Assembly: GCA_947166445.1 (NCBI GenBank)
Contig: CAMVED010000003.1
Span: 589 to 64,588 of the forward strand
Direction of reading: 5' to 3'
DNA length: 64,000 bases
Source: an uncultured Mycoplasmatota bacterium
GTDB taxonomy: Bacteria; Bacillota_I; Bacilli_A; RF39; UBA660
Shown: piece by piece, positions 37,908 through 55,191 of the stretch
Layout: each line of letters begins with the position of its first letter
Position numbering within the stretch: the stretch's first letter is position 1
Position numbers and translations under genes: made by a program
The notes under the pieces: generated by a model
The model's database searches: none
What the model saw: the letters and a program-made list of their open reading frames with translations, nothing else
What the model was told of the DNA's origin: nothing

Positions 37908-37919
37908 TTTCTTTACCTC

Positions 37920-38998: not shown

Positions 38999-39047
38999 AA
39001 AAATCTCGTACTGCGAATACGAGATAGGAACTACCAAAATATGTTTC

Positions 39048-39085
39048 AGTCTGACAAACTAAAAAACAAATACATTATAAAGAAA
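39048..39085. repeat. Right arm of the inverted repeat, upstream of integrase 1
   Basis: AGTCTGACAAACTAAAAAACAAATACATTATAAAGAAA. See 37920-37956. Confidence 0.8.
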
Positions 39086-39182
39086 TAATGTTACATCGGC
39101 TTTCCATATATAAATTATAACACAAATGTAAAATTTTACAAGTTTTTAGGCATATTTTGGTATTTTTCAGAAAGGAAAAGTT

Positions 39183-40298
39183 ATGCCTGTATATAAAGAT
39201 AAAGTCACCACTAAAGATGGAAGATGCTGGTACTTTAGATCCAGATATCAAAAATTAGATGGCACTCGTACTCAATATCACTCTAAAAGATACATGACCA
39301 GAAAAGAAGCACAAGAAGCTGAAGCAGAGTTTCTAATTAAATCTAAAGAAGCCGCTAATGTCAGTACTCTTAATTTTAAACAGCTTATTAACTTATTTAT
39401 TGAAAATAGATCTACAATTGTGAAAGGTACAACCATGTACAATTACAAAAATAAAAAAGTTTATTTGGAACCATTATATAATGTAAAATTAAAAAACTTT
39501 AATATTGATATTTACGAACGCTGGAGAAAATATATAATTACTTGTAATCTTTCTACTCGTTATAAAAATGATATATATAAGTTTTTAAAATCATTACTTA
39601 ATTATGCTTCTGATTGGTATGGATTTAGTTTTGCACATGTATATAGAAAAATGCGTAATTTTAACGATCCTAATGAAATACCCAAGGAAATGCAATTTTT
39701 TACTTATGATGAATTTCAAAAGTTTTTATCTGTAGAAGAAGATATCAAATTTAGATGTGCTTGGCAACTACTCTACTACTGTGGATTAAGAATTGGTGAA
39801 TTAAAAGGTATTACATGGAAGGATATTGATTTTGAAAATAGAAAAGTTACTATTAACAAACAAATCACTCAACAATCATGTCGTACTAGATGGCAATTTG
39901 CACCACCTAAAACTGCTAAAAGTAATCGAGTGTTACCACTTACTAAAGTTCTTGTTAATGACCTTAAAAAACTAAAAGAAAGCGATTCAGATATACTATT
40001 TGGATTCAATGATTCATATTTTGTCATTGGTGATGTGGCTCCACAAATAAGTAGTACTATTACCTCTAGAAAAAATCGTAATTGTGAACTTGCTGGTGTT
40101 AAGCAAATCAGGATCCACGATTTCAGGCATTCGTGTGCTTCACTACTTATTTATAAAGGTGCTACTATAAATACTGTATCAAAGTTCTTAGGTCATTCTA
40201 AAATTGAAGAAACTTTGAATACTTATACTCACTTATATAAAAATGCTTTGACTGATATAACAGCTTTAATTGATGAAATGAATGAAGGCCAGGATTAA
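39183..40298 (+). CDS. int: Tyrosine recombinase (phage integrase family), island A
   Basis: LRIGEL...(R), HDFRHSCASLL and LGHSKIEETLNTYTHLY (R-H-R-Y catalytic pattern). Confidence 0.9.
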   Translation: MPVYKDKVTTKDGRCWYFRSRYQKLDGTRTQYHSKRYMTRKEAQEAEAEFLIKSKEAANVSTLNFKQLINLFIENRSTIVKGTTMYNYKNKKVYLEPLYNVKLKNFNIDIYERWRKYIITCNLSTRYKNDIYKFLKSLLNYASDWYGFSFAHVYRKMRNFNDPNEIPKEMQFFTYDEFQKFLSVEEDIKFRCAWQLLYYCGLRIGELKGITWKDIDFENRKVTINKQITQQSCRTRWQFAPPKTAKSNRVLPLTKVLVNDLKKLKESDSDILFGFNDSYFVIGDVAPQISSTITSRKNRNCELAGVKQIRIHDFRHSCASLLIYKGATINTVSKFLGHSKIEETLNTYTHLYKNALTDITALIDEMNEGQD

Positions 40299-40309
40299 CT
40301 CCCGGCCTT

Positions 40310-41137
40310 TTAGCTATTTATATTTTCTACAAATGTTGAATTTGTTTTAATTACACTTATACCATGAAAATTTTGTAGCCACATCTTATAATGCATTTTT
40401 GTACTAATTTCATTAAAATTTTCTATTGTCAATTCAAACATTAAGCATAAATCTGCATCATTGTTGATCATACTATCAAAACATTTGTCTGGTTCACAAT
40501 ATACTTTTATTTGAATGAAAAACTCATCTTCACTAATCCAATTTAAATAAGCTTTATTACTTATATTTATATCTAAACCTAAAGGAATTGGATCATTTGA
40601 ATTATCTTCCCATTTTAATCCAACTTCTGATGGATCTTGAACACATAAAATATTATCAATTGTGATTTTTTTAATATTGCTACATTTCCCAGAACACTTA
40701 AAATATAAATTCATCAAATATTGATTAAATCTTTTTGCGTTTTTGTCAAATGGTTCAGTAACAATTATTGATCCATAATCGACTTTATGATGTGTAGACA
40801 TAGTAATTTTTGTATCTCTGTTTTCCTTAAAATCAATATCAAATTTATTTTGTAATTGTGGTATTGATATAGATTCTAATAAAGAGTTTTTTAAAACTCT
40901 TTCACTTAAATCATTTGCTTTCTTTGTTTGCCATACGCTTATAGTTCCTAGTATTATAGTTCCTACAAATGATAGAACAGATCCATAAAAGTTAAGTGCA
41001 TCTCCAGCACTCCATTCACTCTGCAACAAAGATATATTGAAATTAGTTTTAAAGGCTATATTAATTAAAAAAGGAACAAAAAAAATAATAAAACAAAAAA
41101 CAAAAAATATTAAACAAATATTTATTATCTTTTTCAT
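40310..41137 (-). CDS. Membrane protein of unknown function (island A, between int and the junction)
   Basis: Two N-terminal TM helices and a roughly 190-aa soluble C-terminus. No motif recognised. Confidence 0.55.
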   Translation of the reverse strand: MKKIINICLIFFVFCFIIFFVPFLINIAFKTNFNISLLQSEWSAGDALNFYGSVLSFVGTIILGTISVWQTKKANDLSERVLKNSLLESISIPQLQNKFDIDFKENRDTKITMSTHHKVDYGSIIVTEPFDKNAKRFNQYLMNLYFKCSGKCSNIKKITIDNILCVQDPSEVGLKWEDNSNDPIPLGLDINISNKAYLNWISEDEFFIQIKVYCEPDKCFDSMINNDADLCLMFELTIENFNEISTKMHYKMWLQNFHGISVIKTNSTFVENINS

Positions 41138-41240
41138 TATGCTGCCTCCTGAATAGTTATTATATCACAACTATTTACATATTTAAAATAACTATAATAT
41201 TCTTTTTATTTAGAAGAAAATCCGGTAAATGCTAAATATA

Positions 41241-41262
41241 ATTGGGCCTAAATTGGGCCTAA
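41241..41262 (+). repeat. Tandem 11-mer ATTGGGCCTAA x2 (candidate arm-type integrase site)
   Basis: Exact tandem duplication about 75 bp left of junction core 2. Confidence 0.45.
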
Positions 41263-41311
41263 AATTTTAATATTCAAAACTTGCAAACCCTTACAAACAT
41301 TGACTAAAAGC

Positions 41312-41336
41312 AAAAAGTGAGCCGATTTCTCGGCTC
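41312..41336 (-). terminator. Hairpin + CACTTTTTG terminator abutting junction core 2
   Basis: The minus strand reads GAGCCGA-GAAA-TCGGCTC then ACTTTTT. It has the same architecture as 52713-52738 but a different stem sequence. Confidence 0.6.
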
Positions 41337-41345
41337 TTCAGGGGG
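41335..41345 (+). repeat. Island junction core TCTTCAGGGGG, copy 2 (A/B boundary)
   Basis: Exact 11-mer. Confidence 0.6.
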
Positions 41346-41448
41346 AAAAATTATAACCTAATTTTTTGTCATATTTTTCATTATTATTGATTTATCACTT
41401 GCTATATTTCTCGTAAACAGCCCTATTTTACCTATCTTGCTCTATATA

Positions 41449-41470
41449 GTTGTTCCCCATTTGTTCCCAA
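41449..41470 (+). repeat. Tandem 11-mers GTTGTTCCCCA / TTTGTTCCCAA (candidate arm-type sites, left arm of island B)
   Basis: Matches the pair at 50861-50882. TTGTTCCCAAGAA is shared exactly. Confidence 0.45.
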
Positions 41471-41503
41471 GAAAAAGGATGAGCTATAAAACCAATCCAG
41501 TAA

Positions 41504-42091
41504 TTATTTCCATATATAATTAAACATTTTTATCATTTGTTCTTTATCTTCATTAAATCTTTTCTCATCAATATTTTTTAATATATTTTCTATTTCTTTT
41601 ATAAATGGTTCAATACTTTTATCAACTGATTTTTCATTAAACCATTTAACCAATGTCTTTATCATTTTTTCTGCTTTATAGTTTTCACCCATATTAATCT
41701 GTGGATTCATTATCATATACATTGAATCGTTCTTCTTGAAAAATCCATGATATTCAGATAAAGAATCTTTAATCTTTGAAGAAAGTTCTGTAAGTTTATT
41801 AAAGAATACAAGGGTATTGATATGATGTAGAAACTCTTTATTTCTAGCAGTATAATATGTAGTATATAATTCAAAATATAGACTATACACAGAATTTATA
41901 ATACGTCTTTTAGCCATAAAGTATTGACATATAGCTGTAACTAAACCAACTATAACACCACACTCTAAATTAGTAATAATATTAATGCTTAATTCTTGAT
42001 TTATTCCAAACAACTGCAATAAATATAACATTGGTATTAATACTACCATCATTATCATTGAAATAATTATAATAATTCTTGATTCTTTCAT
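41504..42091 (-). CDS. Membrane protein of unknown function (island B)
   Basis: Two N-terminal TM helices and a helical cytoplasmic C-terminus. No motif recognised. Confidence 0.55.
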   Translation of the reverse strand: MKESRIIIIISMIMMVVLIPMLYLLQLFGINQELSINIITNLECGVIVGLVTAICQYFMAKRRIINSVYSLYFELYTTYYTARNKEFLHHINTLVFFNKLTELSSKIKDSLSEYHGFFKKNDSMYMIMNPQINMGENYKAEKMIKTLVKWFNEKSVDKSIEPFIKEIENILKNIDEKRFNEDKEQMIKMFNYIWK

Positions 42092-42155
42092 GTAATCACC
42101 TCATTTATTAATTTTATATTATACCACAAAAAAAGCCTAAATTTCTTAGACTCTT

Positions 42156-44813
42156 TTATTCACACACAAATTGTTCACACAAATGTTTAAATGTTGAATT
42201 TTCAGTTATTTTGCTTGCAGGAATTAGAACATAGTTCCATTTTTTCATTCCATTATTGCCTTCCCAGCTTGATACAAGTTTACAATATGATATAGCTCTT
42301 TCCTTTTTAGCTAAAACATCAGCATCATCAAGATCTTTATCTGCTTTTACTTCAACAATAAAAACATTTGATTTGGTTTCAACAACGAAATCAGGTTCAT
42401 ATTTTTTGCCATTATTATATGTAATGTTAAATTCATTAGGGCTAGGTCTTAACCATGTTTTTATAAAATTATTTTCTCTTTCCAATAATCTTGCTAATAC
42501 TAATTCTGGAACACTATCAAATTTTGCTGAAGAAAAAACTCCAATTTTTATTCCGTCAAATAATATTGATGTTATTTTTCCATCTCGTTCAGAATCATAT
42601 TTTTCAAAAATATTTTTTATAATAGAATATGTATAATTAGATTGAATGTTAGTTTTCCTATCAGAGAATACTTCTTCCTTTATTATTCCCTCATTTCTAA
42701 CAAAGTGTTTTAACATTTGCGAATATATTTCATTTACTAACTCAATTTTATACATCATAACTACATTTTTCATGGCTTCAATTCCATATTTATCTGAAAG
42801 ATAAGTTGTTAAAGAATTAATTAATTTAAATAGCAACTCACTATTTTCTTCATAATTAATTTCAGCTTTTTTTCTAAGTTCATCAACAAGTGTTTTATTT
42901 GGATTCACTGCATCAAAATTAATGTACCCACCATCTAATATTTGTTGATCAGACGCATCAATTAGATTTCTAATAAGTATCTCATTATCAGTTGGTTTTT
43001 GATTAAACACACTCAAATTTAAATCAAAATCCTCAAAAAAGTATTCTCCTTCTTCTCTTTCGGTCTTAATTTTAGGTATCATAATAAATTTTTCTAACAT
43101 TTCATCGTGAGCTTTAGATAAATTTTCCTTTATCCAATGTTCAATTGGTTCTTTATTTGATTCATAAATTTTACCTAAATCAACATCTTTCTTAATTTCT
43201 TCTTCTATATTTTGTTTTATTATTTCTTTTTTTTCAGAAGTTAATCCATCGTCGCCATTATTATTGAAAACAAAGTTTTCGACATTTTTAATTAGCAAAT
43301 CATTCATTTTTGAAGAAAAACCATATTTTTCAGATTCTTCTTTTACAACTAATATATCTGTTAGGCTATCATCTGTTGGATAATTAATGGATAACTGTGT
43401 GAATACCTCTTTTTGATTTTCAATTTCTTCTACCTTAATTACATTTCCAGCATTAAAAATTGAATTACCTTTTTGTGCTTCTTCTATTATTTCATTAAAT
43501 TTATCATGTGCTGTTAACATTACAGCATCAATTTCCTTATTTCCTGTTCTTTCCCCATAAGGAAGTCTTAATCCTCTTCCAACCATTTGCTCTCTTAGTA
43601 TTTTAGATGTCGCCGTTCTCAATGGAACTATTGTATATAAATTATTGACATCCCAGCCTTCTTTTAGCATGTTAACATGAATTACTATTTCAACAGGATT
43701 ATCCGGATGTTCAACTTCTAATAATTGTTTAGTATTATATTCTGATTCTGCACCTTTTTGCTTTGAATTAATTGTAATTGTTTTATATTTATAAAAACCA
43801 TTTTCAAATTCATCAGATTTAATATAATTTTCAATTTTTTTAGCATGTTCTGTGTCTTTACAAACTACTAACATAAATGGCTTTACTAATTTTTGCTGCG
43901 TTGATTTGGAATAATATCTCAGCTTTTCTTTTATCATCTTATGGCATGTTATTCCATCATTTAGCATAAGTTTGTCTAATTCTTCATCACCGAATTTATA
44001 ATAACTAAAGTCTGTTCTGGTTACTGCAAAAGGAACACGTGTATAACCATCTTTAATGGCAGCAGATAGTGGATACTCAAAGACAACATTTTTAAATGAT
44101 ATTTGTTTATTACCAATATTAACTAAAGGCGTAGCTGTTAATTCTATCCCCAAAATTGGTTTCAAATTATTAATAGCTTCCATCCCTTTTTCAGCTCTAT
44201 AATGATGTGATTCATCCATTATAATTACTAAATCGTCCATGGCGGATAGTTTTTCATAAAATGACATCCCTAAATTTTCATTAAAAGCTTTCATTTTTGT
44301 GTTTTCTTTATCAAATTTACTAATATTATATACATAAATAGACACATCAGAATCATATATAGAAATATTTCTATTTAGATAATCATCATCTGCTATAACT
44401 TTAGGTAATTGATGAAAACAATTTAAACCTTTAAACACATATTTTGGACTTTCCTGATATCCTAAATCTGATCTTAATTTATCGTAAATCGTTGTACTTG
44501 GTGCAACAACTAAAAAGTTCTTTATTCCATAATTTGAATATAAATATGCAATAAAAGCACCCATCAATCTTGTTTTCCCTACACCAGTAGCTAAAGCAAA
44601 TGTAATAGATGTAAATTTTCTTTCAAAATCAGTAAATATAGGGTATTCACTGTTTATATCTTTTATTATTTTTTCATTGCTATCTTGATTTAAAATATCA
44701 TATTTTTTAGTTATATTGTCTAATATTTCTAAAGATTTTTTTTGTGGAATCCTAAGAGACATTGCTCCTGAAATATAATCTGTATCAAATCTAGAATCTA
44801 ATTTCTTAATCAT
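42156..44813 (-). CDS. res: Type III restriction enzyme, Res subunit (SF2 helicase + PD-(D/E)xK nuclease)
   Basis: ATGVGKTR motif I and MDESHH motif II. C-terminal EPDFVVE...IVEVK nuclease motif. ATGA overlap with mod. Confidence 0.85.
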   Translation of the reverse strand: MIKKLDSRFDTDYISGAMSLRIPQKKSLEILDNITKKYDILNQDSNEKIIKDINSEYPIFTDFERKFTSITFALATGVGKTRLMGAFIAYLYSNYGIKNFLVVAPSTTIYDKLRSDLGYQESPKYVFKGLNCFHQLPKVIADDDYLNRNISIYDSDVSIYVYNISKFDKENTKMKAFNENLGMSFYEKLSAMDDLVIIMDESHHYRAEKGMEAINNLKPILGIELTATPLVNIGNKQISFKNVVFEYPLSAAIKDGYTRVPFAVTRTDFSYYKFGDEELDKLMLNDGITCHKMIKEKLRYYSKSTQQKLVKPFMLVVCKDTEHAKKIENYIKSDEFENGFYKYKTITINSKQKGAESEYNTKQLLEVEHPDNPVEIVIHVNMLKEGWDVNNLYTIVPLRTATSKILREQMVGRGLRLPYGERTGNKEIDAVMLTAHDKFNEIIEEAQKGNSIFNAGNVIKVEEIENQKEVFTQLSINYPTDDSLTDILVVKEESEKYGFSSKMNDLLIKNVENFVFNNNGDDGLTSEKKEIIKQNIEEEIKKDVDLGKIYESNKEPIEHWIKENLSKAHDEMLEKFIMIPKIKTEREEGEYFFEDFDLNLSVFNQKPTDNEILIRNLIDASDQQILDGGYINFDAVNPNKTLVDELRKKAEINYEENSELLFKLINSLTTYLSDKYGIEAMKNVVMMYKIELVNEIYSQMLKHFVRNEGIIKEEVFSDRKTNIQSNYTYSIIKNIFEKYDSERDGKITSILFDGIKIGVFSSAKFDSVPELVLARLLERENNFIKTWLRPSPNEFNITYNNGKKYEPDFVVETKSNVFIVEVKADKDLDDADVLAKKERAISYCKLVSSWEGNNGMKKWNYVLIPASKITENSTFKHLCEQFVCE

Positions 44814-46423
44814 TATTCTTCCTCACTTTCTAACGATTGAATAATATTTAAATTATAATTGTCAACATCATATTTACATTTATCTAATAAAATTTCAGGA
44901 ATTTTTCTTATAACAATATTTTTATATTTCTTCACAATATTGGTGTCATATGAAGTACAAGCAATTATTAAAAATTCATTTTCTTTCATGCTTTGATATA
45001 TACTATCTAACAGGTTTTCATTAACAAAATTTGTAGTTGTATATAAATAACTATTTTCTGTCCCTATGGATTGTTTCCAAAATATTTCAGGAGAAGGATT
45101 ATAAGTATAATTCTCATGAAGAGCAACTGCAGAAGCAAGCATCTCAGCATTATATTGTTTATTGATAACTTGAATTCCAAAACAATCTTCTTTTATTAGA
45201 GTTGGCGCTAGTTCATAGAATTTGTAGCCTCCGCCACCTTTCCAATTTACAAGTTCACTTATACCCTTCGTATCTTTTCCAGTAATAACATCATTTATTC
45301 TAGGAATACAATGTGTATAACAATGATCTCTCATTTCTATTCCTATCCATTTTCTATTCATTTTGTGTGCTACCGCACATGTAGAACCACTTCCTAAAAA
45401 AGAATCTAAAACATAATCACCTTCATCTGTAGACATACTTATAACTCTTTTAATTAATCTCTCAGGTTTTTTCCCAGCCTTAAAATCACCATTTCCTTCT
45501 TGAAATAAGTTGTTAAATCCAATATCTGTCCATAAGTCACACACCAATCTAGCAAGCACAAATCCATCATTCGTTTCTTTGATACTATTGTCAATTAATT
45601 GAACCTGTCTACCTTTATATGCAAAATAACCTGGCATTTCATCAATTGGCACAACACAATCTTTGTTATATTTTTCAACATCTTTAATTCTTGCTAATCC
45701 GACCGGCTGAAAAATTCTATTTTTATTTTCATAAACCCATTTATTAAATGCATTATTATTAATATCTGCAATAAGATTTTTTTCTTTTAAAACATCACTA
45801 ATCGAAACCACTTCACAAGATGATAAATCATTTAGATTTCCTTTTATATACTTATTGTAATGAGAATCCCATGAATCAGCCTTAATATATTCTCGATTAA
45901 ATCTTACACATTCTCTTTTTTTAGAATATACAAGAATATATTCTTTCTCTTTTAATATTTTTTTCTCTGCATGTTGAATTTTAACGCCATTAGGTGGACT
46001 GACTTTTATTGAGATTGTGTTAATAAAATTATTTCTACCAAAAATTTCATCGCAAAGAACCTTTAAGTATGCCATCTCTCCATCATCAATTTGAATCCAT
46101 ATTAATCCATCATCAGTCAACAATTCTCTTAAAAGTTCAAGTCTTTGTCTCATTAAATTTAACCAAATTGAATGTTCTAAATTATCATCATAATGTTCAA
46201 ATGCACTACCAGTATTATACGGAGGATCAATGTAAATACATTTGATTTTGCCTGTAAAATCTTTTTGCAATGCTTTAAGTGCTAGCAAGTTATCTCCATG
46301 TATCAACTTATTATCAGTATTACTATCACCAAAAGATTTCGACTTTTCTTCCAATAATATTCTTGGTTCTATTGATTCTCTTTTTTCTTTTCCAATCCAC
46401 ATAAGTTCTAATTTGTTCTTCAT
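44813..46423 (-). CDS. mod: Type III DNA methyltransferase, Mod subunit (beta-class N6-adenine)
   Basis: IYIDPPYNTGS (motif IV) precedes DSFLGSGSTC (motif I). Start moved to M9 (GAGGGTGG RBS). Confidence 0.85.
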   Translation of the reverse strand: MKNKLELMWIGKEKRESIEPRILLEEKSKSFGDSNTDNKLIHGDNLLALKALQKDFTGKIKCIYIDPPYNTGSAFEHYDDNLEHSIWLNLMRQRLELLRELLTDDGLIWIQIDDGEMAYLKVLCDEIFGRNNFINTISIKVSPPNGVKIQHAEKKILKEKEYILVYSKKRECVRFNREYIKADSWDSHYNKYIKGNLNDLSSCEVVSISDVLKEKNLIADINNNAFNKWVYENKNRIFQPVGLARIKDVEKYNKDCVVPIDEMPGYFAYKGRQVQLIDNSIKETNDGFVLARLVCDLWTDIGFNNLFQEGNGDFKAGKKPERLIKRVISMSTDEGDYVLDSFLGSGSTCAVAHKMNRKWIGIEMRDHCYTHCIPRINDVITGKDTKGISELVNWKGGGGYKFYELAPTLIKEDCFGIQVINKQYNAEMLASAVALHENYTYNPSPEIFWKQSIGTENSYLYTTTNFVNENLLDSIYQSMKENEFLIIACTSYDTNIVKKYKNIVIRKIPEILLDKCKYDVDNYNLNIIQSLESEEE

Positions 46424-46572
46424 ATTACCACCCTCATCGCTTAGCAATTCTCTTAACTAAAATTATATCACAAAAATGCAGTTTTTTATTACATATACAC
46501 ATTAATTATTAAAAATTGTTTAAATCTTGCATTATTTTTAATTTAGAGTAATTAATACATACGGAGGTGTTT

Positions 46573-46896
46573 ATGTTAAGGAAATGTACTGATGAAGATA
46601 TAAGTGATGAGGAATGTGAAAAGGTTATTGATCCTTTTTATGATAACTATGATAGTTATTTGGAAGAATATGTTATTCCTGAAGTTATAGCATTTTATAT
46701 TGCTAGTTCTTTTTATAGAAATGCTATGTGGGAAGCAACTTTTGAACAACATTTTAATTCTGCTTTTGATACATTTAATCTGATGTGTAAAAATTATAAA
46801 AAAATGAAAGCTGAGGTTATTAAATTACTCAGATTAAAATATTCTTTAGAAATTATCAACGAGGATCCTTTAGACTTCAAAATAATTGAGTATTAG
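46573..46896 (+). CDS. Conserved island protein (paralog of 36025-36348)
   Basis: GGAGGTG RBS. High similarity to the island A copy. Same position, divergent from the RM methylase gene. Confidence 0.65.
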   Translation: MLRKCTDEDISDEECEKVIDPFYDNYDSYLEEYVIPEVIAFYIASSFYRNAMWEATFEQHFNSAFDTFNLMCKNYKKMKAEVIKLLRLKYSLEIINEDPLDFKIIEY

Positions 46897-46950
46897 TGAT
46901 TACTAATCTCTTTTTTTTATTGTAGTAGTAATACAATAAAAATATATATT

Positions 46951-46999
46951 CTTTTCTTATTCTTTCCTTATCCTTATCCTTATTCTTATCCTTATCCTA
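46951..46999. repeat. Tandem hexamer array (CTTATC/CTTATT-type, about 8 units)
   Basis: CTTTTCTTATTCTTTCCTTATCCTTATCCTTATTCTTATCCTTATCC, read directly. Confidence 0.75.
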
Positions 47000-47008
47000 G
47001 GAGGTCAT

Positions 47009-47090
47009 TGATTATTATTTGATTTCAATTTGATTATATTTTGATTTTTGTTTGATTTGTTTTTGATTTTGTTTTGGTTGATAAATGATT
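47009..47090. repeat. Iteron-like array: TGATT repeated with strict 11-bp phasing (8 positions, one degenerate)
   Basis: TGATT occurs at 47009, 47020, 47031, 47042, 47053, 47064 and 47086, with TGGTT at 47075. Candidate replication origin. Confidence 0.7.
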
Positions 47091-47195
47091 TATTTTCCAA
47101 AAAACTCACGGAAAATATAAATTTGTGTGAATTTAGGTGGCAGATCGGTGTTGATTTTTTTACCAAATAAAAAGAGCTATCCCCCGGGGGATGCT
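47088..47195. repeat. Conserved non-coding block (copy B), ending in the palindrome ATCCCCCGGGGGAT terminator
   Basis: Aligns with 36697-36805. The hairpin plus T-run on the minus strand follows the rep-remnant stop. Confidence 0.7.
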
Positions 47196-47499
47196 AAAAT
47201 GGAAAGTCAATGTTGTGGTAATTCACTTCATATTCATCATTCAAACATTCATTCTTAACCCAATTAGAACCGTATTTTATATGAATATCAGGAGTGTCAT
47301 CATTTTTTAAAAATTCTATATAATTATCCAAGCCTTGTTCTATAATTTCAAACGATTCTCCATTTTTTATTGCTTGATTATAATAATATAAAGCTTCTTT
47401 TTTACCAACTCTTTTAGGATATTTATCCCATAATAGTTCAAACTGATTTATTGTTTTTGGATCAATGTCAGAAACATCAAAAGTGCTACACAACCTCAT
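47194..47499 (-). pseudogene. Probable remnant of a phage replication-associated gene (C-terminal domain only)
   Basis: It retains FELLWDKYPKRVGKKEALYYYNQAI... There is no convincing RBS. The 5' part of the track ORF (47500-47559) runs into DNA homologous to the non-coding int leader of island A. Confidence 0.4.
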
Positions 47500-47711
47500 A
47501 AGGCTATAAGAGTTTCTAAAAATATATAAAAAAAATCTCGTACTGGAATACGGGATCAATCAGAAATACCGTTTTGTTAGAGTCTGAAAAACTTTAAACA
47601 AATAAACATTATATAAATACAATGTAATGGGATTTCCTAAATTAATTATACCATTTTTATATAATATTACAAGTTTTTAACGGTATTTCCTTTGTAGAAA
47701 GGAATTTTTAT

Positions 47712-48836
47712 ATGGATGTGTATAAAGATAATAGGCCTACCAAAGATGGTAAGATATGGTTTTATAAGACTCAATATGAAGATATTGATGGTACTCATAA
47801 GATTAAAAAATTAGGTAGATATGCAACTAAAAAAGAAGCAGAAGATGCTGAATTTGAATTTAAATTAAAACTAAGAGAATATGAGAATACTAATAATGTG
47901 ACTTTTGAAGAAATGATTAGGATGTTTATTGATTTTAGAAAAGATAAAGTTAAGGAAAATACGTTATATGGTTATAACAATAAATTACCTTATTTAAAAT
48001 CACTATATAAAGTTAAGCTTAAAGATTTTAACTACCCTACTTTTGAAAGATGGCATGATGAAATAAATAGTACTCATCTTGCTACAAGAACTAAAAATGA
48101 CATTTATAAATTATTAAAAACTATTTTGAATTATGCTACTGCTTGGCATGAGTTTAACTTTGCTAAGGTATATCCTAAAATGTATAACTTTAATGATCCG
48201 AATGAATTTCCAAAAGAACAATTATTTTTTACTTATGAAGAATTTAAGCAATTTCTTTCTGTTGAAACTGATATCAAATGGATTGGTATTTTTGAAATAT
48301 TATACTATTGTGGATTAAGACGTGGTGAGCTTAGAGGATTACAATGGAAAGATATCAATTTTAAAGATAGAACTTTAAGTATATCTAAGCAAATTAATGA
48401 TCGTTGTGGATCCGTTAAAAATTGGCGATTCTCGGTTCCAAAAACTAAAAGTAGTATAAGAATATTAAAGATGCCACAATTCCTTACAAACGACCTTAAA
48501 ATGATGAAAAACGAGGCAGAAAAGATACCTGGATTTAATGATAACTTCTTTATAGCTGGAGATATGCTTCCTGTATGTAGTAATACACTTACTAATCATA
48601 AAAATGTTAATTGTAAATTAGCTAATGTTAAGCAAATTAGATTACACGATTTTAGACATTCATGTGCATCTCTTTTAGTTAATAAAGGAGCTAATGTTCA
48701 AGTAGTAGCAAAATACTTAGGTCATACAAAAGTTGAAGAAACTCTAAAGACTTATTCACACCTATTTACAAGCACTTTAGATGAAGTAGTTGCTGTAATA
48801 GATAATTTAGATAATAATAAAACCGATGATGTTTAG
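47712..48836 (+). CDS. int: Tyrosine recombinase (phage integrase family), island B
   Basis: Homologous along its length to 39183-40298. HDFRHSCASLL and LGHTKVEETLKTYSHLF. Confidence 0.9.
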   Translation: MDVYKDNRPTKDGKIWFYKTQYEDIDGTHKIKKLGRYATKKEAEDAEFEFKLKLREYENTNNVTFEEMIRMFIDFRKDKVKENTLYGYNNKLPYLKSLYKVKLKDFNYPTFERWHDEINSTHLATRTKNDIYKLLKTILNYATAWHEFNFAKVYPKMYNFNDPNEFPKEQLFFTYEEFKQFLSVETDIKWIGIFEILYYCGLRRGELRGLQWKDINFKDRTLSISKQINDRCGSVKNWRFSVPKTKSSIRILKMPQFLTNDLKMMKNEAEKIPGFNDNFFIAGDMLPVCSNTLTNHKNVNCKLANVKQIRLHDFRHSCASLLVNKGANVQVVAKYLGHTKVEETLKTYSHLFTSTLDEVVAVIDNLDNNKTDDV

Positions 48837-48850
48837 TCACCGGTTATTTT

Positions 48851-50746
48851 TTATAGTAATTCAAGTTTTTCAGATAATACACTCTCTAGATAATTTACAG
48901 CTTCCTTTTTTGTAACACCATACTTATCTTTTTCCAATTTAGAAATACCATTAATAAGTTCTTCAAATGCTTCTCTATCGCTGTCATAATATTCTTTTAT
49001 ATTTCCAAAACTATACATTCTATCTATGCAATACTTAAAATGATATATATTTCTATTATTGCTTTTATCAATATTATTTATTATCTTTCCGATATTTAAT
49101 TTTGATAAAAATCCTTTACCATTAAAAAAGTAATTGTAATTCTCACTTTCATGGATATAATTATATAATTTAATTCCCCAATCATCATCATTTAATATAT
49201 TTTCAACAGAATCATTATTAATGATAGTATTCTTATTTTTACTTGCTATTTTTAATCTTTCTATATTCTTATTATAAATATTTAATACTTTCTCATTTCT
49301 AATTATTTGATCATAATTTATGTAGTATTTTCTATCGAGGTTCTTATCTATTTTGTCTTCCATAATAGTTATTATTTCATCAATAAGTTTAGGTTCAAAA
49401 TTTAAATTTTGTAATGCTGATAAAGTTACTACTATTTTTGGAAAAATACTACACGGATATAAATCATCATTTAATTCATCTTTTAATGCATTTAATAATT
49501 CACGCAGTTTATCATCTTCTAATTCCCAATAACACTTTAATTCAGAAAATGCATTATCGGAATTTTCAAAATCATTTTCATTACTATTAACATATTCATC
49601 TATAGTACTCTCTATTTCTTTTACATCTATATTTTTATTTAAAATATAATCATCAACAAATTTAAATGCTAAAAAGTACATAAAAGTACTCTGATGTTCA
49701 TCATCACCAAAACAAGTTGTTTGATATTTTATACCACCTGACCAATTCAACATTTTATTGCCTGCTTTAATATTGATAACGTCAATAATGAAATTAATAT
49801 AAATTTTTGAATACATTTCTTTTTCTAATTTTAAATTTGCTTTCTTTATTTTTAAATATAACTCATAGAAATCTTCAAATATACATTTTACTGTTCTTAG
49901 ATTTCCACAAGTATATAAGTTTATTTCATTCATCAATGTTTTTTTATGTTCTTTTAAAAACAAATAATAAGCATTATCATATTTATAAATATCTATTAAT
50001 TTATCGATTATTGTATCCAAATTAGGAATATACTTATAAGTTTTACCAATAAGCTTTTCTTTAATAAGCCTATAGTTATAGTTCATTTCATATAAACGAT
50101 CTACTCTTTCTTTAATAATAGAAATACTTGGTACTGTAGTATCAACTTTTTTTCCAAAAAAATCTTTCTTTTCTGGATCTTCATAATTAATATTTGATTG
50201 CATTGTAGATAAAAGTTTCAATTCATAATTTTTATTAAAATCTATTTTGCCAACTTCATTTTCATTAGCTATTATAATTACTTTAATTCCATGATGTTCA
50301 ACAAATGAATTAATGTATGCTAAACACATATTAATATCTAAATTTGCTCTTTCTAAATCATCAAATATTAGTACATAATTTTTCAAATTACTATTTTCAT
50401 TAAGTGTTCCAAATATTTCTGAATAATTCAAGTCTGGTTTTATTATTTTTATTACACTTAAGCCAAGCGAAGCTATTTTAGAATATTTACCAGTGATTTG
50501 TAAATATATTTGTGCAGAAACAGAATCTAAAGAGTCTACACCGTATAGTGATATATATAAAGGCTTTTTGTTTTTTAAAGTTGGCTTATTACCATTATTT
50601 GCAATATCTTCATTTAATTTTGGAATCAGTTCTTCTTTTATAAAATATGTTTTACCGGATCCCCATTCTCCATCTATTAATACTGCATAATTAATTCTAT
50701 CGTTCTTAATATATTTTTTTAGTTCTTCTATCAATTCTACATTCAT
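48851..50746 (-). CDS. KAP-family P-loop NTPase
   Basis: IDGEWGSGKTYF Walker A and LIFDDLER Walker B, with a long helical C-terminal region. Confidence 0.75.
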   Translation of the reverse strand: MNVELIEELKKYIKNDRINYAVLIDGEWGSGKTYFIKEELIPKLNEDIANNGNKPTLKNKKPLYISLYGVDSLDSVSAQIYLQITGKYSKIASLGLSVIKIIKPDLNYSEIFGTLNENSNLKNYVLIFDDLERANLDINMCLAYINSFVEHHGIKVIIIANENEVGKIDFNKNYELKLLSTMQSNINYEDPEKKDFFGKKVDTTVPSISIIKERVDRLYEMNYNYRLIKEKLIGKTYKYIPNLDTIIDKLIDIYKYDNAYYLFLKEHKKTLMNEINLYTCGNLRTVKCIFEDFYELYLKIKKANLKLEKEMYSKIYINFIIDVINIKAGNKMLNWSGGIKYQTTCFGDDEHQSTFMYFLAFKFVDDYILNKNIDVKEIESTIDEYVNSNENDFENSDNAFSELKCYWELEDDKLRELLNALKDELNDDLYPCSIFPKIVVTLSALQNLNFEPKLIDEIITIMEDKIDKNLDRKYYINYDQIIRNEKVLNIYNKNIERLKIASKNKNTIINNDSVENILNDDDWGIKLYNYIHESENYNYFFNGKGFLSKLNIGKIINNIDKSNNRNIYHFKYCIDRMYSFGNIKEYYDSDREAFEELINGISKLEKDKYGVTKKEAVNYLESVLSEKLELL

Positions 50747-50760
50747 AATATCCTCCTTAT

Positions 50761-50794
50761 AAAAGAAAAAATTCTATACTATAATTGTATAGAA
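50761..50794 (-). terminator. Rho-independent terminator of the Fic operon
   Basis: The minus strand reads TTCTATAC-AATTATA-GTATAGAA followed by TTTTTTCTTTT, just upstream of the KAP gene RBS. Confidence 0.55.
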
Positions 50795-50860
50795 CTTTAT
50801 GATTCAATTATACTACTTTATTTTTTAATTGTCTGCAATAATCATGCAATTTTAATAAAA

Positions 50861-50882
50861 CTTGTTTCCAAGTTGTTCCCAA
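50861..50882 (+). repeat. Tandem 11-mers CTTGTTTCCAA / GTTGTTCCCAA (candidate arm-type sites)
   Basis: Matches 41449-41470. Lies about 80 bp left of the degenerate core CAAGGGGG (50964-50971). Confidence 0.45.
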
Positions 50883-51034
50883 GAATTATTTATTATTACC
50901 CATATGCTCGTAAGTCCTTATAAATACTGGCTTAAATTAATTTCAATTTTTTGTTGGATGTGGCAAGGGGGAAAAGAGCAAATTTTATAATTATTTTTGT
51001 GTAAACTATTTACACGAAAAAAGAAGATTATTAT

Positions 51035-51283
51035 TTAATCTTCTCCCTTTTCATATAAATCATCATCTTCTAGTTCATCCTCTTCTTCCTCTAATTGATA
51101 TGGTTCATATCCTTCTACTTTTGTTTCTTCTCCTGAACCCCAAAAATCATATTTAGTTTTATTTGTATTAGAGTCTCCTAATAAATCATTAACATCTGTT
51201 AAAAACTTATTTAATTTCATTTTTCTTTGAATCTTCTTTTCTAATTTTTCTATCTTTCTTTGTTCTTTTTCTTCTCTAGTCAT
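51035..51283 (-). CDS. Small protein with basic N-terminus and highly acidic C-terminus
   Basis: Start moved to MTREEKEQ. C-terminus LEEEEDELEDDDLYEKGED. Follows the DUF3592-like gene. Confidence 0.45.
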   Translation of the reverse strand: MTREEKEQRKIEKLEKKIQRKMKLNKFLTDVNDLLGDSNTNKTKYDFWGSGEETKVEGYEPYQLEEEEDELEDDDLYEKGED

Positions 51284-51296
51284 ATTATCACCTATA

Positions 51297-51758
51297 TTAA
51301 TCACTCTTCATAGCGCTTTTAAATCCTTTATAAAAACCAATTAAATTCATACTAGATAGTACTAAAAGCATAGTTCCAAAAAGAAACGAAGGAACTGTTG
51401 ATTGTTTTGAACCAATATCAAACTGTTTATAGTTCTTAGGATTATAACTAATCTTTTGTGTACTTCCTATTATGATTTCATTGCTATTAGTTGTTGGAAA
51501 TCCATTTGCTCTTACAATTTGCCCATTATAATTATATTCATAAACTGGTTTATATACATTTATTTCTCTATTATATTCAATATCTACTACAGTAGCTGTT
51601 GCATCTTTATAAGTTATTAAATGAACTGCAGATACAAGATTAGCTACTGTCATAAGAACTCCTATTAAAAAAGCAATTATTAGACCAATAATTTTTGGTG
51701 TCATTAACGTTGCCCCTACTCCAACAGCAACTTTTTTCACTACTTCTTCATTATCCAT
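51297..51758 (-). CDS. DUF3592-like membrane protein
   Basis: TM helix, then a roughly 80-aa beta-rich segment, then a TM helix, as in DUF3592. Confidence 0.55.
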   Translation of the reverse strand: MDNEEVVKKVAVGVGATLMTPKIIGLIIAFLIGVLMTVANLVSAVHLITYKDATATVVDIEYNREINVYKPVYEYNYNGQIVRANGFPTTNSNEIIIGSTQKISYNPKNYKQFDIGSKQSTVPSFLFGTMLLVLSSMNLIGFYKGFKSAMKSD

Positions 51759-51843
51759 ACTATATACTCCTTTTTATAATATCAATTCTTTTTATCATTA
51801 TAACATATTTATAAAAAAAGCGACACTCGTAGGTGCCTATTTT

Positions 51844-52686
51844 TTATTTATTAACTAGTTCTTTAACTATTAAATCTTCTGAATGTAGATTATTAGTTTT
51901 TCCTAATAATAAATTTTCATAAAATTTAACAAGATATTTAGAATCTGTTTTAATATTTAAATCACTATTAGAATAATTACTTCTCACTAAAGCATTTCTA
52001 AAATAAACTGATTTATCTTTAAATAATGTATTATCTACTTCATAGCCTAAGCTTCTTAAATATTTTTCTATAAATACAGCAGTTGTTCTAGTATTTCCTT
52101 CTCTAAAAGGATGTACTTGCCATATTCTTGATGTAAAATCTGTAATACTACTTATTATATCTACTATATTCATATTTTTATAATCTTTATCTTTTTCTAA
52201 TCTTAAATCATATTCTAAAGAATCTTCTATCACTTTATAATCTGTATAAGGTACTGAATCTCCATTTAATATTATTTCATGTTTTGAAAAGTTTCTATCT
52301 CTTAATGTTCCTGCGAAATCATATATATCTTTAAATAAAAATTTGTGAATATCTTTTATACAATTAACAGATAACTCAAAATAATCATTTTGTAAAAATT
52401 CTACTATTCTAGTAGAAACAAGATCACACTCAAATTCATCCATGTTTATACTTTGTTTTTTATTTTTTTCTATGTAATAGTTTCTTAATTCTTGTTCTAC
52501 TTCTTTTATTGTTTTTTTACCAATTATATTTTCTTCAGTAAGATTTTCTAAATATTTAGAGGGCTTTAAGTTGTCTACTTTTTGAAGTCCAATAGCCATA
52601 TCCCAATATGTTTGTCTTTTATAACTTTCAGTTTCTTCTTTTATAATATATTCATTTACACTAGAATCATAATACTCTTCGCTCAT
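51844..52686 (-). CDS. Fic family protein (AMPylase-type fold)
   Basis: Fic motif HPFREGNTRT. Confidence 0.85.
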   Translation of the reverse strand: MSEEYYDSSVNEYIIKEETESYKRQTYWDMAIGLQKVDNLKPSKYLENLTEENIIGKKTIKEVEQELRNYYIEKNKKQSINMDEFECDLVSTRIVEFLQNDYFELSVNCIKDIHKFLFKDIYDFAGTLRDRNFSKHEIILNGDSVPYTDYKVIEDSLEYDLRLEKDKDYKNMNIVDIISSITDFTSRIWQVHPFREGNTRTTAVFIEKYLRSLGYEVDNTLFKDKSVYFRNALVRSNYSNSDLNIKTDSKYLVKFYENLLLGKTNNLHSEDLIVKELVNK

Positions 52687-52712
52687 ACAAGTCCTCCATT
52701 TACATTATATAC

Positions 52713-52814
52713 AAAAAGTGATAGGCCTTTCGGCCTATCTTCAGGGGGTTTTGGTTGAATACCACTTTTTACCTTTGTTCGTAAAAAGTAGACAAGGTTT
52801 TTTACTTACCTTGT
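52713..52814 (-). ncRNA. Candidate small RNA or cis-leader (two hairpins, C-rich single strand, terminator) containing the island junction core
   Basis: Its own TTGACA-17-TATTAT promoter. Hairpins at 52792-52814 and 52765-52788. CAACCAAAACCCCCUGAAGA, then hairpin ATAGGCC-GAAA-GGCCTAT plus CACTTTTT. Not matched to any RNA family I know. Confidence 0.4.
52738..52748 (+). repeat. Island junction core TCTTCAGGGGG, copy 3 (putative attR, recG side)
   Basis: Exact 11-mer. Confidence 0.6.
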
Positions 52815-52820
52815 AATTTC

Positions 52821-52849
52821 ATAATAATATATTTTTTTTTGATTGTCAA
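52821..52849 (-). promoter_or_regulatory. Candidate sigma-A promoter (TTGACA-17 nt-TATTAT) of the RNA unit / Fic gene
   Basis: TTGACA is the complement of 52844-52849 and TATTAT the complement of 52821-52826, with a 17-nt spacer. Confidence 0.55.
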
Positions 52850-52872: not shown

Positions 52873-54924
52873 TTAAGCATCTTTTATATTACTTATTATT
52901 TGATATCTCAATTTTATATCTTCTTCTTTTGTACTTTCTAAGAACTTTAAACTATCCTTTTTAGCTTGTAAAAGTATTTTATAATCTTCTTTTATATCTG
53001 CTATTTTAAAAGTCATATCCCCACTTTGTTTTGTACCAAATAGATCTCCATGACCTCTTAGTTTAAAGTCTTCTTCACTTATTTCAAAACCATTATTAGT
53101 CTTAGTCATTACTTTAAGACGTTCTGCATCTATATCACTAATAAGTATACAAGATGATTCTAGATTACTTCTTCCTACTCTACCTCTAAGTTGGTGAAGT
53201 GTGGAAAGTCCAAATCTATTTGCATCAAATATAACTATCATTGTTGTATTAGGTACATCTACTCCAACTTCTATTACTGTTGTACTAATTAGTATTTGAA
53301 TTTTATTTTCTTGAAAACTATTCATTATTTTATCTTTATCTTTTCCAGATAGTTTTCCATGAACAACACCAATATTATATTTAGAGCCAAATGCACCTTC
53401 CATTTTATCTTTAAGTTCATTTACAGTAGTTAGATCTAATGTTTCAGATTCTTCAATTAAAGGTGCAATAACATATATTTGATGACCTTCTTCTAACTCT
53501 TTATACATCATCTCCGCTACTTCTTTTGTATCTTTATAACCTTTTAAATAAGTTTTAATAGGTTTTCTTCCTTTTGGTAAAGATTCTATTATAGATATAT
53601 CCATATCACCATATATAGTAAGTGCATATGTTCTAGGAATAGGAGTTGCACTCATATAAAGTACATCTGGCATTAAACCTTTATCTTTTAAACTTGTTCT
53701 TTGAAGAACTCCAAATCTATGTTGTTCATCTGTTATTACAAGTCCTAAATTGTCGTACTCAACATCATCTTGTATTAAAGCATGAGTACCTATTACTATA
53801 TCAACTTCATGTTCTTTTATTTTTCTATGTATTTCATCTTTTTCTTTTTTTGTTAAAGAGCCAATTAATAACTCTATTTTACAATCAGTATCTTTTAATA
53901 TATTAGTAACTGTTTCCATATGTTGATTAGCTAAAATTTCAGTAGGAACCATTAAAGCTCCTTGATAACCACTTAAATAGTTTACATAAAGTGCTATGAT
54001 AGAAATTATAGTTTTACCGGACCCAACGTCACCTTGTAATAATCTGTTCATTCGTTTTGGTGATTTTAAATCTTCAAGTATTTCATCTAATACTTTATTT
54101 TGATCTTCTGTTAGTTTAAATGGTAGACTTTTTAATAATTTATTTAAATCTTCTTTTTTATATTTTCTTTCTATTCCATTTTTAACATTTTGATTCTTTA
54201 TTTTTAAATAATTTATTTTAGTCATATAAAGAAACAATTCTTCATATTTTAGTCTAATAGTAGCTTGTTTTAACTTTTCATATGTAGAAGGATTATGTAC
54301 TATATTTAAAGCTGTTTTTTTATTTAAAAAATCATATTTTTCTATTATATTCTTTGGTATATAATCTGTTATATCATTACCGTATTGCATAAGCGCATTA
54401 TTAATAAACACTGCTACATTTTTTGAAGATAACCCTGCAGTACCATGATAAACACTTTCTATTTTTGCACCCTTTGGTAAAAGTCCCATTCTTATTTCAG
54501 ATGCAAGTATTATATTTTTAGATCTTTCGTATTTACCTATTACAGTAATACTAGTTCCTACAGTAAGTTGACTTTTTAAAAATGCTCTATTAAAGATAGA
54601 AACACCAACAACTTTTCCTGTAGAAGTTACTACTCTAACATTCATTTTATTAAGATTACCTTTTAATCTTATTAATATTGGAGCACTATCTACTTTACCA
54701 TCTATAATTACTCTATCAAGCTCTTCAGCTTTATTTAAATCACTTCTTACAATCTTTTCATATCTAAATGGATAATGTGATACTAGAGTTTCAACATCCT
54801 CAATTCCAAGTTTTCCAAGTAGCATTTTTGACTTTGGTCCAACACCTTTTACTTTGTCTAAAGCTATCACAAACACCACGTCCTTTTTCTTACAAATTAT
54901 ACCATAAATTGACATATTTTTCAA
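52873..54924 (-). CDS. recG: ATP-dependent DNA helicase RecG
   Basis: LDKVKGVGPKS, wedge/OB region, GDVGSGKT and TDEQHRFG. The start is probably a GTG near 54870-54879 rather than 54924. Confidence 0.9.
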   Translation of the reverse strand: MKNMSIYGIICKKKDVVFVIALDKVKGVGPKSKMLLGKLGIEDVETLVSHYPFRYEKIVRSDLNKAEELDRVIIDGKVDSAPILIRLKGNLNKMNVRVVTSTGKVVGVSIFNRAFLKSQLTVGTSITVIGKYERSKNIILASEIRMGLLPKGAKIESVYHGTAGLSSKNVAVFINNALMQYGNDITDYIPKNIIEKYDFLNKKTALNIVHNPSTYEKLKQATIRLKYEELFLYMTKINYLKIKNQNVKNGIERKYKKEDLNKLLKSLPFKLTEDQNKVLDEILEDLKSPKRMNRLLQGDVGSGKTIISIIALYVNYLSGYQGALMVPTEILANQHMETVTNILKDTDCKIELLIGSLTKKEKDEIHRKIKEHEVDIVIGTHALIQDDVEYDNLGLVITDEQHRFGVLQRTSLKDKGLMPDVLYMSATPIPRTYALTIYGDMDISIIESLPKGRKPIKTYLKGYKDTKEVAEMMYKELEEGHQIYVIAPLIEESETLDLTTVNELKDKMEGAFGSKYNIGVVHGKLSGKDKDKIMNSFQENKIQILISTTVIEVGVDVPNTTMIVIFDANRFGLSTLHQLRGRVGRSNLESSCILISDIDAERLKVMTKTNNGFEISEEDFKLRGHGDLFGTKQSGDMTFKIADIKEDYKILLQAKKDSLKFLESTKEEDIKLRYQIISNIKDA

Positions 54925-54981: not shown

Positions 54982-55010
54982 TTGACAAACTACCTCTTTA
55001 CAATTATTAT
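54982..55010 (+). promoter_or_regulatory. Candidate sigma-A promoter (TTGACA-17 nt-TATTAT)
   Basis: TTGACA at 54982-54987 and TATTAT at 55005-55010. Confidence 0.55.
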
Positions 55011-55016
55011 ATATAT

Positions 55017-55120
55017 TACCAATTCGGTTTAGGCGAATTGGATGCTAGTATCACACTAGCCAACCCCTTTTTATTCTTTTTATTGAAGCCGTCCTCAGGG
55101 GGAACGGCTTCTTTTATTTT
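55017..55120 (+). ncRNA. Candidate small RNA or cis-leader upstream of the CPBP protease gene
   Basis: Hairpins CCAATTCG/CGAATTGG and GCTAGT/ACTAGC, then single-stranded CCAACCCCTTTTT. The terminator GAAGCCGT-CCTCAGGGGGA-ACGGCTTC plus T-run follows. Not matched to a known family. Confidence 0.4.
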
Positions 55121-55191
55121 ACACTTTATATTTATTTACTGTTTTTTTACTATATTTTTATGATATACTATATAAGAATAGAGATGATGAT

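Follow-up and report, generated by a model that had tools for sequence, protein, structure and literature searches.

A 64,000-nt stretch of DNA from an uncultured Mycoplasmatota bacterium (contig CAMVED010000003.1 of assembly GCA_947166445.1; the whole stretch is called the window below) contains an array of integrative islands, and the short core repeated at their junctions lies within a promoter–hairpins–terminator unit beside recG. What kind of gene is this unit, and what becomes of its 3′ end when mobile DNA enters it? The first-pass annotation, which was made from the DNA letters alone, proposed that the core, immediately 5′ of a terminator, belongs to an unannotated small RNA or leader and that the islands bring replacement terminators. 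The present analysis supports this proposal. The unit is best explained as a conserved host small RNA gene that serves as the chromosomal attachment site (attB) for tyrosine-integrase islands bringing replacement terminators, a reading to which we assign a probability of about 0.85. It is carried by the conservation and covariation of the RNA, the fixed point at which the sequence source switches between loci, a universal terminator after that point, the reassortment of terminators among host alleles, and the association with one family of integrases.

A Predicted Small RNA Gene Beside recG

The unit occupies positions 52849–52713 of the minus strand and comprises, in that order, a sigma-70-type promoter, two hairpins, an unpaired C-rich stretch, and an intrinsic terminator (Table 1), all of them at the positions first assigned. 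The promoter matches the consensus at 11 of 12 positions and was the top promoter-like site of the region in a promoter scan; 24 nt separate its −35 element from the end of recG. The minimum-energy fold reproduced the drawn architecture (−34.1 kcal/mol; z = −5.2), and none of 200 shuffled sequences was equally stable. The terminator stem-loop, GAUAGGCC-GAAA-GGCCUAUC, spans 52739–52720 and is followed by AC and a U5 run that extends to 52713; a terminator scan of the unit returned exactly one terminator, at this position. The surrounding DNA is low in GC (about 26% for the window). ARAGORN found no tRNA or transfer-messenger RNA (tmRNA) gene in the window, and the target gene thus belongs to neither class. 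A gathering-threshold search of the window and of 17 diverse related loci, together with E-value searches around the unit, matched no Rfam 15 family to it. There is also no conserved open reading frame (ORF) in the unit; a six-codon ATG frame seen in the window is missing in the related locus L001 (L-numbers are labels of related loci or contigs, and P-numbers, used below, denote integrase clusters from a protein database). In silico, the unit is predicted to be a small RNA gene whose own promoter and intrinsic terminator bound a short noncoding transcript.

Conservation and Covariation Across Relatives

The unit is present in more than 130 related contigs. A probe consisting of RecG only, used against one genome per species, reached metagenome-assembled genomes labeled uncultured Bacilli, Mycoplasma, Tenericutes, or Erysipelotrichaceae, with RecG identities of 61–93%. 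A complete unit was found downstream of recG in seven of these genomes, and a truncated one in L004. All seven complete units have the promoter, two hairpins that differ in sequence yet pair, an identical 22-mer (UAUUCAACCAAAACCCCCUGAA, kept down to 61% RecG identity), and a terminator, the sequence of which is different in each genome; the hairpin sequences track RecG relatedness. Scanning metagenome contigs with the 22-mer added at least 120 further contigs. Host records of the unit are labeled Bacilli, Mollicutes, Mycoplasma, Tenericutes, or Erysipelotrichaceae, and recG lies upstream of the unit in 55 of 128 unit-bearing loci. The unpaired stretch (UCAACCAAAACCCCCUGAA / UCAACCAAAACCCCCUGAAG) is nearly invariant among related units. 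Loci that were reached without the first bases of the 22-mer show variants, among them ACACAACCAAAACCCCCUGAAG, GUAGUAACCAAAACCCCC, and CAACCGAACCCCCUGAAG, and the invariant part is therefore approximately AACC(A/G)AA(A)CCCCCUGAAG. L047 holds another copy of the small RNA (6205–6291, minus strand; core CCCCCTTAAG; 26 bits with the covariance model described below), inverted and diverged, about 370 nt downstream of the first unit.

Structure was examined in two ways. When 70 distinct sequences were folded singly, hairpin 1, hairpin 2, the unpaired stretch, and the terminator appeared each time; the invariant stretch was unpaired in 70 of 70 folds and had no alternative pairing with the terminator. 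A covariance model (R1) was also built from five sequences. Searching relatives with such a model had been suggested at the outset; it gave one strong match per locus with the structure conserved, and an alignment of 86 distinct rows. Paired cells made up 96.1% of this alignment, compared to 64.6% after shuffling and 27–56% with the partner slid, and changes on both sides were seen in 17 of the 18 pairs, over 421 cells. Plain MAFFT with RNAalifold on 86 units, an alignment that is not structure-aware, recovered only four pairs and was superseded by the covariance-model alignment. Promoter scores of at least 10/12 were obtained for 72 of 87 distinct upstream regions versus 6 of 92 control regions. 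These patterns indicate that the small RNA is maintained as a structured RNA by compensatory changes and that its gene is conserved by selection, and the proposal of an unannotated small RNA at the att core now has behind it a conserved, covarying unit in all these contigs.

Terminators Carried by the Mobile DNA

Across loci, the source of the sequence switches directly after CCCCCTGAA; in 90 of 107 cases a G comes next. Each of the 95 distinct downstream sequences has a GC-containing hairpin 0–3 nt past the core, followed by at least five T residues; the same test was passed by 22 of 2,560 random positions (0.9%). These counts come from an explicit hairpin search, which replaced an earlier detector based on whole-segment minimum-energy folds that had miscounted (82 of 107). 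The hairpins are mutually nonhomologous, with about 60 alleles against 74 host alleles, and the two sets reassort. Eight identical host alleles bear two to five different terminators each, and twelve terminators were found behind two to nine different host alleles. Two different RNA alleles are followed by the identical integrase P0021 with the identical hairpin GACACCCTTAATTGGGTGTC. The terminator of island A, the more distant of the two integrase-bearing islands in the window, directly follows the RNA in L025, L083, and L128, where the integrase is 79–82% identical to that of island A (IntA). Beyond the T-run, most elements share a box resembling TATAAGGGTTTGCGAG, followed by two 9–12-bp direct repeats, presumed to be arm-type integrase sites. 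To judge from this reassortment, the terminator is element-borne and travels with the integrase, and the islands appear to restore the 3′ part of the target RNA gene by shape only, using some 60 unrelated sequences. The idea of replacement terminators, first raised from two dissimilar stems in the window, is borne out at 95 of 95 junctions.

These observations also bear on whose gene the RNA is. Were it an element-end RNA belonging to the mobile DNA, it would fit that the sequence directly downstream of the unit is mobile- or cargo-like in every locus examined and that no clearly empty site was seen among them. The unit nevertheless keeps its position after recG in 55 loci, its hairpins follow the relatedness of RecG, the source switch falls at its 3′ end with distal junctions carrying the core only, and identical elements stand behind different RNA alleles. 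Ownership by the mobile elements is highly improbable on these grounds.

Integrases Associated with the Unit

Both integrases in the window contain PF00589 and Arm-DNA-bind_4 domains and match phrog_1 (integrase). IntA and IntB, the integrase of island B, are 51% identical to one another, and the nearest phage integrases are 33% identical; an exact-sequence look-up of IntA and IntB returned no record. Tyrosine integrase homologues are encoded downstream of the unit, and convergent with it, in 27 loci, and 15 of these end 84–150 nt from the core. Whether homologous integrases elsewhere sit beside the same RNA, as the first-pass annotation anticipated, was examined in seven sampled integrase clusters (49–73% identity to IntA). 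Four of them (P0007, P0021, P0050, and P0061; 52–73% identity) have the unit, in convergent orientation and 0.16–2.9 kb past the integrase stop. Some integrase homologues, in L213 and L223–L225 (49–67% identity), are accompanied by a Mob_Pre relaxase and an AAA_25 protein, with no unit within 4 kb; this gene content suggests integrative mobilizable elements, which may have a different target site or be buried deep in an array.

More distant relatives (39–40% identity) in the viral contigs L146 (7175–7260) and L149 (7175–7250) stop some 80 nt short of a convergent tRNA-Phe gene that heads a tRNA cluster, the same geometry as that of the integrase at the small RNA. This fits descent of the integrases from ones that target the 3′ ends of tRNA genes. 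None of 74 viral-contig loci with integrase homologues (22–46% identity) had the unit or the core; many of these contigs stop at the integrase gene, so that this negative is uninformative on site specificity.

The position of the integrase raises a further question about the terminator, namely, whether it is kept mainly to shield the convergent integrase and the cargo from read-through from the strong RNA promoter. The structure would then be the same and the selective reason another. As the integrase is convergent with the RNA and close to the core, at 84–150 nt in 15 loci, read-through would be antisense to the integrase gene, and terminators are mostly intact at the distal junctions within arrays. 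On the other hand, the hairpin lies 0–3 nt past the core in 95 of 95 sequences, a precision suiting a defined RNA 3′ end, and two internal junctions in the window have no hairpin. We consider shielding as the principal reason unlikely, though well worth keeping in mind; preserving the RNA and shielding the integrase are not mutually exclusive, and one or both may be selected.

An Array of Elements Bounded by Short Core Repeats

The core CCCCCTGAAGA occurs in exactly three copies in the window, at 30190, 41335, and 52738, all on the minus strand (0.12 by chance; 0 of 100 shuffles reached that count). These exact cores correspond to the three junctions already recognized, and a fourth, degenerate core at 50971 has to be added to the count for the array. 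The elements are thus bounded by direct repeats of a short core, three exact and one degenerate, in the same orientation (Table 1).

Table 1. Features of the small RNA locus and of the adjoining array of elements in the window
Feature	Coordinates	Strand	Description and basis
Small RNA promoter	52821..52849	-	TTGACA (52849-52844), 17 nt, TATTAT (52826-52821)
Hairpin 1, host-encoded, 7 bp	52792..52814	-	Predicted fold; all 7 pairs changed on both sides (86 distinct sequences)
Hairpin 2, host-encoded, 11 bp	52762..52791	-	Predicted fold; 10/11 pairs changed on both sides; 97.7% of cells paired
Unpaired, nearly invariant UAUUCAACCAAAACCCCCUGAA, presumed seed	52740..52761	-	Identical in 7/7 complete RecG-reached units
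Terminator now ending the small RNA, apparently element-borne	52713..52739	-	GATAGGCC-GAAA-GGCCTATC, AC, T5
Junction 1, att core CCCCCTGAAGA	52738..52748	-	Boundary of host RNA gene and mobile DNA; sequence-source switch across loci
Junction 2, degenerate core CCCCCTTGCCA, terminator lost	50961..50971	-	Alignment to L088 island left end
Junction 3, core (41345-41335) and intact island A terminator	41312..41345	-	GAGCCGA-GAAA-TCGGCTC, AC, T5
Junction 4, intact core (30200-30190), decayed terminator and box	30150..30200	-	Comparison with L001, L056, and L111
Integrase-less Fic cassette, element nearest to the RNA, 1.8 kb	50972..52737	-	Fic 51844-52686 (Pfam Fic domain) and two small ORFs
Island B	41346..50960		Tyrosine integrase 47712-48836 (+), KAP NTPase, ResIII helicase, N6/N4 methylase, replication-protein fragment; Pfam and PHROGs
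Island B left-end signature	50862..50926	-	Box TATTTATAAGGACTTACGAG (50926-50907); arm-type direct repeats TTGGGAACAA/TTGGAAACAA (50882-50862)
Island A	30201..41334		Tyrosine integrase 39183-40298 (+), cI-like repressor, replication organizer, DpnII-type restriction-modification, DUF5677 protein; Pfam and PHROGs
Island A left-end signature	41242..41299	-	Box TGTTTGTAAGGGTTTGCAAG (41299-41280); direct repeats TAGGCCCAA x2 (41261-41242)
recG, conserved host gene upstream of the small RNA	52873..54924	-	Pfam
Second small-RNA-like unit, divergent from recG	54982..55121	+	TTGACA (54982-54987), 17 nt, TATTAT (55005-55010), two hairpins, unpaired CAACCCCUUUUUAUUCUUUUU, terminator 55085-55121

Three similar copies in 23 kb could also be taken for a generic repeated terminator or repetitive extragenic palindromic (REP)-like element, scattered over the genome and unrelated to integration, a case that the first-pass annotation had itself put forward as one that would overturn its proposal. 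The hairpins speak otherwise, with about 60 different sequences that do not make one repeat. Across about 1 Mb of related DNA, no core lies outside the unit and the downstream island junctions, with one exception, the apex of the terminator of a second small RNA (see below), which reads CCCCCTGAGG on the opposite strand; five-G runs are otherwise nearly absent from the window. A generic repeat has next to no chance of being the right explanation.

The internal junctions differ in their state of preservation. At 41335, as had been noticed, the core is again followed by a hairpin whose stem sequence (GAGCCGA/TCGGCTC) differs from that of the RNA terminator, while the architecture and the AC-T5 tail are the same. 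At 30190 no hairpin follows the core; this absence, noted earlier as unexplained, reflects decay. In L001, L056, and L111 the intact form is GAGAGCGATTAACTTATGTCGCTCTC-T6; GAGAGTAATTAACTTATA retains a recognizable 5′ arm and loop, the 3′ arm and the T-run being deleted, and the mutated box ATAAATGGTTTTA corresponds to ATAAGGGTTTTA. Near junction 2, from about 50935 downward, nearly every base of the sequence aligns with the left end of the island in L088, the integrase of which is 97% identical to IntB, and L088 has the core and terminator intact at the position of junction 2. The hairpin is thus lost at two of the three displaced junctions in the window; the RNA-serving junction is intact here and in every other locus. 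Distal cores were found in 16 other loci, with a hairpin after them and often another island's left end, and the distal junctions have the core only, without upstream RNA sequence. The AAGGGTTT box was considered as an inverted core-type integrase site paired with the host AAACCC and was rejected, the motif being absent from the P-arm sides of distal junctions.

Because of the degenerate junction at 50971, the 1.8 kb beside the RNA is a separate Fic cassette. The terminator now serving the RNA belongs to the integrase-less cassette and not to the island with the integrase at 47712. The Fic start (52686) follows the last T of the terminator at a distance of 26 nt. Fic homologues (68–69% identity) directly follow the unit in L015, L023, L027, L050, L067, and L107; in L023 and L050, Fic is in a 1.35-kb cassette between two cores. 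This proximity, the shared direction, and the recurrence of Fic downstream of the unit in several loci are what would favor the other possibility offered by the first-pass annotation, a cis-acting leader or attenuator of the Fic gene. Elsewhere, however, the unit precedes unrelated genes, including opposite-strand integrases, methylases, AAA/KAP proteins, and a PHP phosphoesterase. In loci with Fic, the gene comes 160–230 nt later, past the box and arm repeats, and the cassette that holds it has a core at either end; the invariant stretch is unpaired in every fold, without the alternative pairing to the terminator. An attenuator is accordingly an extremely improbable account of the unit.

Islands B and A carry different cargo. 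Pairs of the putative arm-type repeat TKGGRAACAA at 50882–50862 and 41470–41450 bracket island B (five matches versus 0.75 expected). In island A, the putative arm repeats (TAGGCCCAA, two copies) are at the integrase-proximal end only, and its layout of box and repeats is like that seen in most islands; its DpnII-type system consists of two methylases and an endonuclease. The two islands have a backbone in common at 79–85% identity (36022–36366 and 36691–36768 versus 46570–46914 and 47082–47159; small ORFs and the replication module), and they are therefore related elements with different cargo. Beyond the last core, positions 18034–30059 hold an integrase-less defense-type cluster, which encodes two GmrSD-family proteins, a CapR/zinc-finger protein, an AAA-M41 protease, a Macro domain protein, a type I S-subunit fragment, an ADP-ribosylglycohydrolase, and a NERD-HRDC protein. 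It probably represents the remains of older integrations at the RNA site. Outside the array, the only Rfam match in the window was an S-adenosylmethionine (SAM) riboswitch (RF00162, 66 bits) at 10921–11004 on the minus strand, an ordinary feature upstream of the gene at 9974–10552.

A Second Predicted Small RNA and Candidate Pairing Partners

On the other side of recG lies the second small-RNA-like unit (Table 1). Its terminator is GAAGCCGUCCUCAGGGGGAACGGCUUC with a U-run (fold z = −4.6), and its unpaired CAACCCCUUUUUAUUCUUUUU holds a CCCCUU motif of the RsaE type. The RNA is conserved in 17 other loci with an invariant core of about 37 nt and the apex YCUCAGGGGG, and both hairpin 1 (in L079 and L114) and the terminator stem covary; an E-value search found no Rfam match. 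Its apical UCAGGGGG is complementary to CCCCCUGA(AG) of the att-site RNA, over 11 bp in L079 and L114. By analogy with the sponge RNA that pairs with RoxS, the two recG-flanking RNAs may interact. The larger picture, in which recG is flanked by two undescribed, deeply conserved small RNAs of like build with C-rich seeds, one of them a dedicated, always-occupied landing pad at which diverse defense-carrying elements exchange the 3′ hairpin, and in which the two may interact, is speculative, and we hold it to be improbable as a whole. If it were true, a core regulatory RNA would owe allelic variation in its terminator or stability hairpin to mobile DNA.

Analogy also suggests what the C-rich stretch does: in the manner of RsaE/RoxS, the att-site RNA probably base-pairs through it with G-rich, Shine–Dalgarno-like sequences. 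A complementarity search over about 1 Mb of related DNA found only island junctions and the second RNA. The sole target lead is a GGGGGUG Shine–Dalgarno sequence (55860–55884, plus strand) before the metallophosphoesterase gene at 55882–56769, seen in two genomes only, those of the window and L001.

Discussion

The results can be joined in the following model. A small RNA of about 100–115 nt, conserved in uncultured low-GC Bacilli of gut and rumen, would be transcribed and terminated as drawn, and the last 9–11 bases of its conserved stretch, CCCCCTGAA(GA), would form the crossover core (attB). The recombinases would be a family of lambda-type tyrosine integrases with an arm-binding domain, and their carriers small integrative elements, about 10–11 kb in the window, with an integrase, a repressor, a replication module, and defense cargo. 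The integrase-proximal end of such an element would comprise the core, the element's own hairpin and T-run, the conserved TATAAGGGTTTGCGAG-like box, and arm-type direct repeats, giving the attP order P arm, core, terminator, box, arm repeats; for island A, the excised circle is predicted to join the P arm ...AATCTAAACCG to CCCCCTGAAGAGCCGAGAAATCGGCTC. The integrase would recombine attP with attB inside the RNA gene, strand exchange probably falling within the 9–11-bp core CCCCCTGAAG. Integration would leave the promoter, hairpins, and seed host-encoded, swap the terminator of the RNA for an unrelated one of the same shape, and shift the previous terminator to the far junction. Repeated integration would build a tandem array, which in the window would run from the Fic cassette through island B and island A to the integrase-less defense remnant, and displaced terminators, no longer needed, could decay, as at junctions 2 and 4.

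Several points weigh against this model. The promoter and terminator are predicted features. The alignment behind the covariation counts was fitted with the model and favors the structure, a bias that the single-sequence folds, being independent, offset in part. No unoccupied site and no excised circular attP junction were recovered, so that the placement of strand exchange in the core is deduced from flanking repeats only; a comparison of L085 with L015 and L050, which have the identical host allele, gave a cargo mosaic and no clean empty site. Three of the seven integrase clusters had no unit within 4 kb; these integrases may be placed deeper in arrays or have other target sites. Finally, the complementarity search of about 1 Mb of related DNA yielded no target of the C-rich stretch.

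What is new here is an RNA family absent from Rfam 15, the host group in which it occurs, and a mode of restoring a target gene that keeps only the shape, one RNA being served by many terminators of unrelated sequence. The work thereby defines a small RNA family that is widespread in little-known Bacilli of gut and rumen and for which a covariance model exists. An integrase family can apparently use as attB those bases of a regulatory RNA that are conserved best and restore the gene by function only, and the outcome is a natural series in which one RNA is found with many different 3′ hairpins. The RNA also marks a defense-island hotspot and can be used for mining mobile elements and defense systems in metagenome-assembled genomes; the cargo at this hotspot includes DpnII-type and ResIII/methylase restriction systems, GmrSD, KAP NTPase, Fic, and OLD-family nucleases.

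Parts of the array can be compared with known classes of mobile element. The integrase-less cis-mobilizable elements (CIMEs) that accompany ICESt1 and ICESt3 are flanked by att sites. The Fic cassette likewise lies between two att cores, lacks an integrase, and adjoins integrase-bearing elements that use the same site, but its distal core is degenerate in the window. Phage satellites of the phage-inducible chromosomal island (PICI) type combine an integrase, a repressor, and a replication module with genes that hijack phage packaging. An integrase, a cI-like repressor, and a replication organizer occur in the islands; no packaging or capsid-redirecting gene was recognized, and the cargo consists of restriction-modification and other defense genes.

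The RNA itself recalls RsaE, the single-stranded CCCCUU motifs of which pair with G-rich sequences resembling Shine–Dalgarno sites (PMC6158497). Like RsaE/RoxS of Firmicutes, the att-site RNA is short and has an unpaired C-run (here CCCCCU) between its stems and its terminator. The seed context differs, and the att-site stretch matched no Rfam family even at E-values up to 10, RsaE, if in the library, being among those unmatched. Small RNA genes have been implicated as phage targets before, ryeB of Salmonella and ryeE of Escherichia coli being the earlier-known cases, and such genes may be important integration sites (PMC3603311). The ryeB and ryeE prophages have in common with the islands that a regulatory small RNA gene is attB. 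In contrast, the RNA, the host phylum, and the integrases all differ, and no Rfam match links the att-site RNA to enterobacterial small RNAs; here, moreover, every locus examined has an occupied site, and the occupants are of many element types with interchangeable terminators.

The closest parallel is the classical one of islands and prophages that enter the 3′ ends of tRNA or tmRNA genes and regenerate the gene. There, as here, the gene of a tyrosine integrase adjoins, in convergent orientation, a small stable-RNA gene; the element lies between repeats of a short core and provides the stretch of the target gene beyond the crossover; and tandem arrays form at one site. The target described here is neither a tRNA nor a tmRNA, however, and only 9–12 bp are common to the sites. 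Elements that target tRNA genes restore the sequence itself, whereas the part restored at this small RNA is not a sequence copy and may be any one of some 60 unrelated, terminator-shaped hairpins.

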